Shown here: piece by piece, positions 4,509-6,011 of the stretch | Numbering within the stretch: position 1 is the first letter of the stretch | How the letters are laid out: the number at the start of each line of letters is the position of its first letter | IMG/VR virus record: IMGVR_UViG_3300029562_000126 | Span: 1-19,552 of that record | Strand: one strand, 5' to 3' | From: a virus | Taxonomy: Duplodnaviria > Heunggongvirae > Uroviricota > Caudoviricetes | DNA: 19,552 nucleotides | Notes under the pieces: model-generated | The model's input: only the letters and a program-made list of their open reading frames with translations | Told to the model about the DNA's origin: nothing | Databases searched by the model: none | Position numbers and translations under genes: made by a program

Positions 4509-6011
4509 ATGACTCAAACTCCTCTATTACTTGCAATCATATTTTTATTGGTTGTTCTTGTTCTTTATATAGCTGCAATCAAACGCATCAAAAAAATACA
4601 ATTAGAATTAAGTGATAGCAATCAAAAAAATGAAGAATACAAATCTCGCTTTGCAGATTATTTTAATGTAGAAGAAGAATGTAAGAAGCTTATTGAGAAA
4701 ACAGAGCAAGAATGCTCCATAATAAAAGAAGAATCCCTAAAAGTAAAAGAAAATGCCAATAATGAACTAACAAACACCATTGAAAAAATGGATGGTATCA
4801 ATAAACAAATCCAAGAGCTAAGAAGAACTTATAAAGAGAAGAAAGAAATATATGATAAACTAGTAAGGCAAATTTCTATTTATTCAGAAGATGTTGAGCT
4901 AGCCGAACTAGGATTTTACGAACCTCATTTTAATTTTGAAGATTCAGAGCAATTTAAAAACAAAATAAAATCCATCAGGGATGAACAGAAATTAATGCTG
5001 CGGGATAAAACCCACTCTGGCGCAGTATATTGTACAACCCAATGGACTGTTGAAGGCTCTCGAGCAGAGGGTAAAAAAATGACAGACAGAAATATCAGGC
5101 TAACTACTAGAGCATTTAATAATGAATGTGATGCTGCAATTAGCAATTGCACGTGGAAAAACATCACTAAAATGGAAGAACGCATCACAAAGGCATTTGA
5201 GGCCATAAATAAACTAAACGAGCAAAATCACATATATATAAACACTAAATACCTCAATAAAAAACTTGAGGAATTGTGGCTTACCCATGAATATCGTGAG
5301 CAAAAACAGAAAGAAAAAGAAGAACAGGCAGAAATAAGGGCACAAATGAGAGAGGAGGAGCGTGCACAACGAGAAATAGAAAAGGCCATGCAAGACGCAG
5401 AGGCAGAAGAGCGCCGTTATAAAAAAGCAATTGAAGCTGCAAGAAAGGAAATGGAAAAAGTTACTGGTGACATGAAGCAGCGCCTCGAAAATCGCATTGC
5501 CGAACTAGAACAGAGTTTGTCGCAGGCTGAATCAAAGCATCAAAGAGCATTATCCATGGCACAACAAACCAAACAAGGTCATGTTTATATTATTTCGAAC
5601 ATAGGTTCTTTTGGGGAGAATGTTTATAAAATAGGCATGACACGACGTCTTGATCCGCAAGACCGTGTAAATGAGCTCGGTGATGCATCTGTTCCTTTTA
5701 TTTTTGATGTACATGCCATGATTTATTCGGAGGACGCTCCATCATTAGAAAAAAAACTACATGATGTCTTCGATAAAAAGAGAGTCAATCTTGTAAATCG
5801 TAGAAAAGAGTTTTTCTATGTTACTCTGGATGAGATCAAAGAAGCTGTTAAAAAACACTCTGATTCAGAAATTGAATTTATTGAGACAGCAGTCGCAAAA
5901 GACTTTAATGAGTCATTGGCTATTCGTAATCATGAAAATAAAAAAAGTGACAACAGCAACTCATCAATTATACCTGAGCGAAAAACCCCAGAGTTTGCAG
6001 ATGCAATTTAA
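4509..6011 (+). CDS. Membrane-anchored coiled-coil protein with C-terminal T5orf172 (GIY-YIG-like) domain, probably DUF4041-T5orf172 architecture; candidate accessory/defence gene
   Basis: 500-aa ORF with AAGGAA RBS. N-terminal hydrophobic helix (LLLAIIFLLVVLVLYIAAI), long E/K/R-rich coiled-coil segments, then GHVYIISNIGSFGENVYKIGMTRRLDPQDRVNELG...FIFDVHAMIY typical of T5orf172/MUG113 GIY-YIG-like domains. Very AT-rich relative to flanks, and on the opposite strand to the surrounding nin and replication genes. Confidence 0.7.
   Translation: MTQTPLLLAIIFLLVVLVLYIAAIKRIKKIQLELSDSNQKNEEYKSRFADYFNVEEECKKLIEKTEQECSIIKEESLKVKENANNELTNTIEKMDGINKQIQELRRTYKEKKEIYDKLVRQISIYSEDVELAELGFYEPHFNFEDSEQFKNKIKSIRDEQKLMLRDKTHSGAVYCTTQWTVEGSRAEGKKMTDRNIRLTTRAFNNECDAAISNCTWKNITKMEERITKAFEAINKLNEQNHIYINTKYLNKKLEELWLTHEYREQKQKEKEEQAEIRAQMREEERAQREIEKAMQDAEAEERRYKKAIEAARKEMEKVTGDMKQRLENRIAELEQSLSQAESKHQRALSMAQQTKQGHVYIISNIGSFGENVYKIGMTRRLDPQDRVNELGDASVPFIFDVHAMIYSEDAPSLEKKLHDVFDKKRVNLVNRRKEFFYVTLDEIKEAVKKHSDSEIEFIETAVAKDFNESLAIRNHENKKSDNSNSSIIPERKTPEFADAI

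Follow-up and report, generated by a model that had tools for sequence, protein, structure and literature searches.

An antisense open reading frame between ybcN and ren

Which product is encoded by a long open reading frame (ORF) running against the replication and nin genes of a lambdoid prophage, and does it belong to the phage core or to its exchangeable cargo? The DNA analyzed (the window, 19,552 nt) contains at 4509..6011 on the plus strand an ATG-started ORF of 500 codons plus stop, whereas all neighboring genes are on the minus strand. The slot is bounded on its left by the NinB-like gene ybcN (3627..4082, minus strand), named after the RefSeq annotation of a collinear prophage and displaying a weak Pfam NinB match, and on its right by ren (6260..6562, minus strand), which is annotated as "protein ren" in the collinear RefSeq entry and as "Exclusion protein Ren" in Escherichia phage PhiR26_1. 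Beyond ren follow P (6559..7260) and O (7257..8276), and to the left of ybcN the genes ninE, ybcO, rusA, ylcG and Q; these names were taken from a 97% identical RefSeq prophage and all of these genes are on the minus strand.

The initial annotation had placed a 500-codon ORF of markedly low GC content, antisense to its neighbors, in exactly this position, and the base composition agrees with that description. The GC content is 0.351 in the ORF, 0.351 at 4201-4508 and 0.383 at 6012-6259, compared with 0.498 for the flank from Q to ybcN and 0.512 for the flank from ren to cII. The 1503-nt intervals with the lowest GC content of the whole window lie at this locus, and values below 0.40 are reached elsewhere only at the left edge of the window and at a HipA-like locus near 10.1 kb.

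The encoded protein corresponds to SNIPE (PD-λ-1)

PADLOC models for PD-Lambda-1 gave full-length matches (PDLC03976, E=1.9e-198, residues 1-485 against a profile of 491 positions; PDLC03977, E=7e-195), and PHROG 1847 was matched with E=7e-196. As 500 codons in DNA of 35% GC are combined with E-values near 1e-198, the ORF is not a product of chance. All 500 of 500 amino acids are identical to a coding sequence of Escherichia phage PhiR26_1 that is annotated as PD-lambda-1 (XSB42081.1). PD-λ-1 was found by functional selection from ECOR26 as a single-gene defence against lambda (Vassallo 2022, PMC9519451) and was later renamed SNIPE (Saxton et al., Nature 2026, PMC13190303). The ECOR26 gene was cloned as a 1503-nt gene and its HHpred domains were reported as DUF4041 at residues 197-252, T5orf172 at 357-448 and MUG113 at 373-449 (PMC9519451); the ORF studied here has the same length, and its domain coordinates differ by at most one residue. 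Also, the nine residues numbered in the mechanistic study (E223, N250, L253, W257, E264, K305, I308, T319 and E414; PMC13190303) are all present.

These similarities indicate that 4509..6011 almost certainly encodes SNIPE (PD-λ-1), a characterised anti-phage membrane nuclease, as self-contained cargo of about 2 kb in the ren-to-ybcN (nin) slot of a DLP12-like lambdoid prophage of E. coli, with the gene running antisense to the early-right (PR) operon. Identity with the ECOR26 reference protein (RCP76574.1; contig QOXL01000020, 49060..50562) is likely from length, domain coordinates and numbered residues rather than from an alignment. The connection between PhiR26_1 and ECOR26 relies on the phage naming convention, and a literature search for PhiR26_1 and PV340555 returned no record. 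The earlier proposal of a single-gene anti-phage factor is in line with this assignment, the protein being identical in sequence to an annotated member of a family that was selected by function (PMC9519451), but the accompanying remark that the protein is uncharacterised no longer holds, the mechanism of SNIPE having been published (Nature 2026, PMC13190303). The protein is already known, and room for novelty exists only in its genomic context.

Domain organization and conserved residues

The first 24 residues contain no charged amino acid and the Kyte-Doolittle profile peaks at 3.37 for the 19-mer at residues 6-24, suggesting a single-pass transmembrane (TM) helix at about residues 4-24 (4518..4580, plus strand), which is followed by KRIKK. 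DUF4041 (PF13250) was detected at residues 198-252 (5100..5264, plus strand) with E=1.2e-19 and 70.4 bits against a cutoff of 27 bits, and in precomputed annotations this family carries the label "SNIPE". E223 and N250 lie within the PF13250 match, L253 and W257 just past its end. The C-terminal GIY-YIG-type nuclease domain (residues 357-449; 5577..5855, plus strand) was matched by Pfam families T5orf172 (357-449, E=6.9e-17) and MUG113 (373-449, E=7e-19), both above their cutoffs. Thus, the TM helix and the T5orf172/MUG113-like C-terminus combined with DUF4041, both announced from the sequence, were recovered by hydropathy and HMM search, respectively.

The motif GHVYII begins at residue 357 and YKIGMT at residue 373, so that the motifs of the GIY-YIG superfamily are present as G357-H-V-Y360, Y373-K-I-G376, R379, E414 (codon 5748-5750) and N427. 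In a comparison of nine homologues with 30-53% identity, G357, V359, Y360, K374, G376, R379, E414 and N427 were invariant.

A single-sequence AF2 model contained long helices at residues 4-133 and 247-345 (pLDDT 67-86); its mean pLDDT was 55.8, dropping under 50 in DUF4041 and in the nuclease domain (including residues 350-440). The GIY-YIG fold is predicted from the Pfam families and from the AlphaFold/HHpred analysis of the SNIPE authors (PMC13190303). PDB searches with the single sequence and with a profile of nine sequences yielded no relative of the nuclease domain, the only matches being coiled-coil proteins (keratin, ApoA-I, GCN4, tetherin) aligned to the helical segment. Among NCBIfam models no real family was found, only coiled-coil noise from ASRP and MazE far under the cutoffs.

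The gene occupies a variable cargo slot

When the window was compared with PhiR30_1 by blastn, homology around the gene was found only at 2234-4266 and 6287-9800, delimiting a variable cassette of about 2.0 kb (4267..6286) in which homology is lost. In the same slot, PhiR30_1 carries genes for an acyltransferase and a lipoprotein and a small ORF. The SNIPE cassette (at least 80%) is present in 131 of 5,426 complete E. coli genomes (about 2.4%) compared with 2,506 for the adjacent ren/P segment, and in one of 168 phage records sharing the flanks. In unrelated temperate phages, SNIPE homologues likewise lie beside genes for a repressor or an integrase, or carry the annotation of a moron. The gene is a moron, that is, variable cargo and not a core phage gene, as the initial annotation had held, because its presence is patchy, other genes fill the slot, its orientation is antisense and its GC content is 0.35 versus 0.50. 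Enrichment near defence genes, which had been suggested for proteins of this architecture, is not the main signature of this protein: the systems found in prophages have homologues that are themselves prophage-associated, typically with no more than one or two defence genes nearby, though every system also has homologues in defence islands (PMC9519451).

At the ybcN side a junction element of 104 nt (4097..4200) matches PhiR26_1 at 4498-4601 and again at 6432-6535. Between them, the two PhiR26_1 copies share 89% identity, and the copy in the window agrees at 102 of 104 positions with the ybcN-proximal one. In PhiR26_1 they flank a Bro-N/Rha module, which is absent from the window. This module and a 169-aa ORF (about 1.83 kb together) precede the gene in PhiR26_1 and likewise in each of the ten further contexts retrieved for the identical protein; because they are missing from the window, regulation could differ here. 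The same Rha-less arrangement occurs in another complete genome. Any match to the query was obtained in 2,799 E. coli genomes, most of which share only its first 118 nt (4083-4200).

Upstream and downstream signals

An AT-rich promoter region had been suggested in front of the gene, and the composition of the upstream part of the cassette (4267..4508, plus strand; GC 0.351 over 4201-4508) agrees with this, making it a putative promoter region. The promoter itself did not emerge from the scan: 10 sigma-70-like sites were counted versus 6.9 +/- 3.1 expected from shuffled sequence, and as this is not above chance, no promoter can be named. An AAGGA resembling a Shine-Dalgarno sequence is located at 4495-4499, and the region contains a single weak sigma-70-like site, at 4388-4416. 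The functional PD-λ-1 clone had its native promoter within an upstream flank of either 282 or 62 nt, depending on the strand of the gene (PMC9519451), which would correspond to 4227-4508 or 4447-4508 in the window and implies that the gene may carry a promoter of its own. Positions 4097-8813 align with the SNIPE-proximal sequence of PhiR26_1 at 98.5% identity, covering 4112-4508, and since these 397 nt upstream of the ATG exceed either flank of the clone, the native promoter is probably retained in the window.

Downstream, RNA folding predicts a stable hairpin, its inner stem 12 bp long, 24 nt past the stop codon (6035..6068, plus strand); the segment 6005-6085 folds with -22.9 kcal/mol (z = -4.52 versus shuffles). 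The terminator scan detected no plus-strand terminator after the gene, the hairpin having no canonical U-tract, and it is probably a terminator or a transcript-stabilising element. An Rfam scan of the window revealed tRNA only.

Mode of action expected for the prophage-encoded protein

SNIPE is an inner-membrane nuclease that associates with the mannose permease ManYZ before infection and, once a phage infects, with its tape measure protein (PMC13190303). Mapping with PhoA/LacZalpha fusions placed the N-terminus outside and the remainder in the cytoplasm. DUF4041 is the module that binds both DNA and the tape measure protein, and the DNA of siphoviruses is cleaved during injection (PMC13190303). 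Replacement E414A abolished both defence and toxicity, identifying E414 as catalytic, and the membrane tether holds the nuclease away from the chromosome (PMC13190303). The range covers lambda-like phages and other siphoviruses; tested myoviruses and podoviruses were unaffected, as was a prophage already in the cell (PMC13190303). SNIPE is notable in that self and non-self are told apart by the site of DNA entry and not by sequence or modification.

Transferred to the window, these data suggest that the single TM helix would anchor the protein in the inner membrane, leaving DUF4041 and the GIY-YIG nuclease on the cytoplasmic side. There the nuclease (catalytic E414), brought into place through ManYZ and the tape measure protein, would cut entering phage DNA. 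As PR is presumably repressed in a lysogen, the antisense gene would there be expressed from its own promoter, and the hairpin at 6035-6068 may stop the transcript before it reaches ren. The protein may thus exclude superinfecting phages or protect the host to the benefit of the prophage.

Alternative interpretations

GIY-YIG and T5orf172 domains are also found in phage homing endonucleases, and these domains together with the low-GC insertion and its sharp homology breakpoints would suit a selfish gene of the homing type that spreads among phages and has no part in defence. This origin is hardly credible, as a TM anchor and DUF4041 are unexpected in homing enzymes, homologues occupy different slots next to lysogeny genes in different phages, and the identical protein blocks lambda in a nuclease-dependent manner with survival of the cells, its tethered form not cleaving host DNA (PMC13190303). 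Without its TM helix SNIPE becomes highly toxic and cleaves the DNA of the host (PMC13190303), as would be expected of an abortive-infection toxin that is set free when a phage infects and then destroys the chromosome of the cell. Against such a toxin, infected cells bearing SNIPE survive and reach confluence, unlike those with the abortive-infection control PD-λ-3, injected 32P-labelled phage DNA is degraded, and artificial tethering of host DNA to the membrane caused no additional toxicity (PMC13190303). Survival of the infected cells means that SNIPE acts as a direct defence; abortive infection was tested and refuted in the same study (PMC13190303), and for the protein in the window it is just as improbable as homing.

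A role in chromosome segregation is suggested by database entries, some relatives being labelled "ParA" or "chromosome segregation ATPase", and by weak matches to SMC-related and JetC models. The ASRP score was 18.6 bits against a cutoff of 300 bits and JetC E-values were at least 0.15, both over the long, mostly helical stretch; the PDB profile matches to keratin, ApoA-I and GCN4 are of the same coiled-coil kind and Pfam detected no ATPase domain in the protein, leaving an SMC/ParA-like function with a practically negligible probability. It is also very unlikely that SNIPE is present as intact cargo that is silent or ineffective, either through regulatory loss together with the upstream Bro-N/Rha module or through shut-off by antisense transcription. 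Such silence would be compatible with the missing 1.83 kb, with the unconvincing promoter scan and with the decay of other E. coli copies, one of which contains IS1 within the gene (NZ_CP137705.1) and another an IS adjoining it (L004). However, the ORF is 100% conserved, the promoter-bearing flank of the functional clone is retained within the 98.5% identical alignment, and the second complete genome has the identical Rha-less arrangement.

Comparison with related proteins and other defence systems

Diverged homologues are encoded by temperate phages of Salmonella (ES18 gp19), Streptococcus (EJ-1 ORF3), Clostridium (CDMH1 gp42), Corynebacterium (Poushou gp33) and Klebsiella (ST13-OXA48phi12.3). 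They share DUF4041, the GIY-YIG-type C-terminus with invariant E414 and positions typical for lysogeny genes or morons, but are only 30-53% identical, and their N-termini vary greatly in length and sequence, some having no evident TM helix. We know of no experimental assay of any of these five homologues.

P22 SieA, HK97 gp15 and T4 Imm are classical superinfection-exclusion proteins of the inner membrane, encoded by prophages or phages, that stop incoming genomes at entry. To our knowledge, they block translocation without a nuclease, whereas SNIPE degrades the DNA by means of its GIY-YIG domain. Homing-type endonucleases of the GIY-YIG/T5orf172 group have a related C-terminal nuclease domain, the classical ones lacking membrane anchor and DUF4041. 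In the GIY-YIG protein L22 of phiP27, tblastn similarity is restricted to the nuclease domain (57% identity over SNIPE residues 320-476). Zorya and Kiwa likewise reside in the inner membrane and act at DNA injection, a comparison made by the SNIPE authors (PMC13190303), but they are multi-gene systems of unrelated proteins for which sensing of envelope perturbation is proposed, whereas SNIPE works as one protein that takes its position from ManYZ and the tape measure protein. A ZorA match from PADLOC was insignificant (E=0.12).

Genomic context and annotation

Length, domain coordinates, the nine residues, the lambdoid type of the prophage and the ren-side junction are shared with SNIPE/PD-λ-1 of ECOR26, and the context alone differs. 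Between gene and ybcN the window lacks the Bro-N/Rha and 169-aa module, and its prophage is integrated at tRNA-Thr beside proA/proB.

Downstream of cI, the same prophage carries a pair of genes for a HipA-like kinase (HipA_2) and a DUF3037 protein, located within 9993-11569. It is conceivable, if rather doubtful, that the Rha-less cassette (about 4227-6073) represents an autonomous minimal SNIPE unit with lysogeny-specific expression, owing to its antisense position in the PR operon, and that this unit and the gene pair occupying the rex slot form two layers of immunity; one prophage would then pair a nuclease acting at entry with a kinase-based back-up system.

Little is added here to what is known of the protein. 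The locus is an example of how the junction between ren and nin in lambdoid prophages serves as an exchangeable cargo slot, and the practical value of the assignment lies in annotation, the RefSeq label of the SNIPE protein still being "DUF4041 domain-containing protein".

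Identity of the protein encoded at 4509..6011

Reading of the window for open reading frames indicated a 500-codon ORF with an ATG start on the + strand (4509..6011), and all genes neighbouring it are on the − strand. The encoded protein matched both PADLOC PD-Lambda-1 models over their full length (E=1.9e-198 and 7e-195) and also PHROG 1847. When the segment 3600-7300 was compared with sequenced phages by megablast, only the record of Escherichia phage PhiR26_1 spanned the entire query; its copy of the gene carries the annotation 'PD-lambda-1' and its product is identical to the window protein at 500 of 500 residues. 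PD-λ-1 originates from ECOR26 (contig QOXL01000020, protein RCP76574.1; Vassallo et al., 2022, Supplementary Table 2, PMC9519451), where the gene occupies 49060..50562 and the cloned fragment 48998..50844 (PMC9519451), and the reference gene and the window ORF share a length of 1503 nt. In the SNIPE paper, which uses the new name of PD-λ-1, nine residues are numbered (E223, N250, L253, W257, E264, K305, I308, T319, and E414; Saxton et al., Nature 2026, PMC13190303), and all nine were found at the same positions in the window protein. As temperate phages of the ECOR collection are named ΦR##.# in that paper (PMC13190303), PhiR26_1 very probably comes from ECOR26; a literature search found no paper naming PhiR26_1. 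In precomputed annotations the Pfam family PF13250 (DUF4041) is already named 'SNIPE'. Judged by its sequence, the window protein belongs to the SNIPE/PD-λ-1 family and would seem to be its reference allele, with a link to ECOR26 that we infer. This feature of the window is already known: the initial annotation had rightly suspected an anti-phage factor, and its description of the protein as uncharacterised is out of date, the mechanism having been published (PMC13190303).

Architecture and published mechanism of SNIPE

Every one of the family-defining sequence features of SNIPE/PD-λ-1 was tested and every one was found. Residues 1-24 contain no charged residue, reach a Kyte-Doolittle 19-mer maximum of 3.37 and are followed by KRIKK, in agreement with the N-terminal transmembrane helix proposed initially. 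Long helices at 4-133 and 247-345 (pLDDT 67-86) in a single-sequence AlphaFold2 model are in line with the proposed coiled-coil segments; the nuclease domain was poorly modelled, and no PDB relative of the predicted GIY-YIG domain was detectable by sequence. The predicted combination of a C-terminal T5orf172/MUG113 domain with DUF4041 was recovered by Pfam HMM search, with DUF4041 at residues 198-252 (E=1.2e-19), T5orf172 at 357-449 (E=6.9e-17) and MUG113 at 373-449 (E=7e-19), all above curated cutoffs; the motifs GHVYII and YKIGMT start at residues 357 and 373. These coordinates are at most one residue apart from those published for PD-λ-1 using HHpred (DUF4041 197-252, T5orf172 357-448, MUG113 373-449; PMC9519451).

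PD-λ-1 emerged when E. coli genomic fragments were selected functionally for resistance to λvir; the gene alone, cloned with its native promoter on a low-copy plasmid, was confirmed to protect and left adsorption unaffected (PMC9519451). SNIPE resides in the inner membrane with its N-terminus in the periplasm and the remainder in the cytoplasm, and binds DNA via DUF4041; deletion of DUF4041 or the E414A exchange abolishes defence, and a version without the transmembrane helix is toxic and cuts the host nucleoid (PMC13190303). In the presence of SNIPE, injected 32P-labelled λ DNA is fragmented and ParB-marked genomes do not appear, and an induced λ prophage already resident is not affected (PMC13190303). 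Against λ-like phages SNIPE relies mostly on ManYZ; a weaker ManYZ-independent defence acts on most BASEL siphoviruses and does not cover the tested myoviruses and podoviruses (PMC13190303). Direct contact of DUF4041 with the tape measure protein, the reported recognition target, is indicated by crosslinking, by DUF4041 mutations that confer gain of function and by mutations in the Bas14 tape measure protein that allow escape (PMC13190303). SNIPE-expressing cells survive infection (PMC13190303), and therefore the defence is direct and not of the abortive-infection type. In acting at the membrane as DNA enters, SNIPE somewhat resembles Zorya, Kiwa and classical superinfection-exclusion proteins, to which it is unrelated.

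Temperate phages of Klebsiella, Salmonella, Clostridium, Lactobacillus, Streptococcus, Corynebacterium, and Mycobacterium encode homologues with 30-53% identity, typically located beside repressor or integrase genes or annotated as possible morons. A 9-sequence alignment displayed a highly variable N-terminus, a moderately conserved DUF4041 and a strongly conserved nuclease domain (invariant: G357, V359, Y360, K374, G376, R379, E414, and N427), which agrees with the pattern reported for the family (PMC13190303). In Salmonella phage ES18 the homologue gp19 (2659-4188 in locus L015; 48% identity) and two further 'possible morons' are inserted among the tail genes, immediately before the tape measure gene, whose start is at 4818. 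L22 of phage phiP27 (2281-3510 in locus L021), a GIY-YIG family protein of 409 aa, shares 57% identity with SNIPE residues 320-476, its tblastn match covering the C-terminal part only. The related prophage in NZ_AP021944.1 also has, close to its lysis genes, a separate gene for a GIY-YIG nuclease of 162 aa (7189-7677 in locus L002), outside the window. Labels given to homologues in phage and genome records, such as 'chromosome segregation ATPase', 'ParA', 'AAA-ATPase', 'putative regulatory protein', and 'replication' are probably misannotations driven by the coiled coils.

SNIPE as antisense variable cargo

Gene names of the neighbours were taken from a RefSeq prophage 97% identical to window 80..16845 and from PhiR26_1. 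To the left of SNIPE lie ybcN (3627..4082), ninE, ybcO, rusA, ylcG, and the Q antiterminator gene, and to the right ren (6260..6562), P (6559..7260), O (7257..8276), a cII-position gene, and a cro-like gene, all on the − strand. The initial description of an opposite-strand ORF of lower GC than its flanks is correct: SNIPE has 35.1% GC and its immediate flanks 35-38%, compared with 49.8% for Q..ybcN and 51.2% for ren..cII, and the lowest-GC 1503-nt windows across the whole 19.5 kb fall at this locus. The one point of the initial description that holds only in part is the 'AT-rich promoter region': the AT-richness is confirmed, and sigma-70-like sites upstream of SNIPE were no more frequent than in shuffled sequence in a promoter scan. 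Because the gene is antisense to the PR operon, SNIPE probably has a promoter of its own that drives its expression in the lysogen. A hairpin at 6035-6068 (12-bp stem, −22.9 kcal/mol, z=−4.5) probably terminates or stabilises the transcript; it lies at most 62 nt from the stop codon, and 62 nt is the length of one flank in the functional clone of Vassallo et al.

At least 80% of 4083-6259 was present in 131 of 5,426 complete E. coli genomes, whereas the adjacent ren/P segment reached this coverage in 2,506; any match to 4083-6259 was found in 2,799 genomes, most of them matching only the first 118 nt on the ybcN side. Among 168 sequenced phages sharing the flanks, SNIPE was found in only one. 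Homology with PhiR30_1 stops at 4266 and restarts at 6287, delimiting a cassette of about 2.0 kb; in PhiR30_1 this slot is filled by genes for an acyltransferase and a lipoprotein plus a small ORF. The distribution is that of variable cargo rather than of a core phage gene, as the earlier view of a moron implied. The exact protein is very common among E. coli assemblies (at least 1,000 contigs; 975 members in its 90%-identity cluster), and most of ten retrieved contexts show the same lambdoid slot. Other copies show signs of decay or rearrangement around them: an IS (DDE_Tnp_1) between SNIPE and ren (7755-8771 in context L004), a recombinant nin region with SNIPE between two sets of nin genes (L008), a prophage remnant with SNIPE abutting fimZ (L010), and an identical gene split by IS1 in NZ_CP137705.1 (H17).

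A module of about 1.83 kb, encoding a 169-aa protein and a Bro-N/Rha-like protein, separates ybcN from SNIPE in PhiR26_1 and in 10 of 10 further contexts of the identical protein; the window cassette lacks it. In PhiR26_1 a direct repeat of 104 nt bounds the module on either side, the two copies sharing 89% identity (4498-4601 and 6432-6535 in L001). The window has one copy (4097-4200), identical at 102 of 104 positions to the ybcN-proximal repeat and running on into SNIPE-proximal sequence, which fits either loss of the module through recombination of the two repeats or an arrangement that predates its insertion. The element contains a terminator-like hairpin on the − strand (4140..4123) and most of a RefSeq-annotated 33-aa ORF. 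Strain WP2-S18-ESBL-07 has the same Rha-less arrangement with a 100% identical cassette. That SNIPE expression was lost together with the module seems very improbable: the window retains all of the roughly 400 nt preceding the start codon, and expression loss is therefore not expected.

Other features of the prophage

Directly downstream of a cI-like repressor gene (9145-9873, +), in the slot of rexAB in lambda, lie genes for a HipA_2-family kinase (9993-10745, +; PF20613, E=1e-76) and a DUF3037 protein (10727-11569, +; PF11236, E=8e-24), which overlap by 19 nt and have 40% GC. The pair matches the PADLOC candidate system PDC-M66A/B (5.8e-15 and 4e-16) and resembles DS-6/HipAD, a validated two-gene system of a HipA-like kinase and a DUF3037/DUF1829 protein (PMC13092281); it is probably a second defence module of the same prophage. 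Other SNIPE-bearing prophages have in this slot DUF6932 with a 310-aa protein, or a 126-aa protein.

The region beyond Q often carries cargo in lambdoid phages. Here, to the left of Q, it holds genes for a YbgA-like protein with 2-thiouracil desulfurase and DUF1722 domains (384-1343, −) and a lipocalin-family protein (1536-2060, +), neither matched by PADLOC; in the collinear RefSeq prophage both are found between Q and the lysis genes.

An integrase gene (15599-16762, +) next to tRNA-Thr (anticodon CGT; 16777-16852, −) marks the end of the prophage, beyond which lie a proA-like aldehyde-dehydrogenase-family gene (16967-18220, −) and a proB-like amino-acid-kinase + PUA gene (18232-19422, −). 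The NZ_AP021944.1 prophage, otherwise 97% identical, is located at tRNA-Arg (TCT) beside fimZ. Identity falls to 74% over the final ~340 nt of the integrase/att region, which suggests a swap of the integration module.
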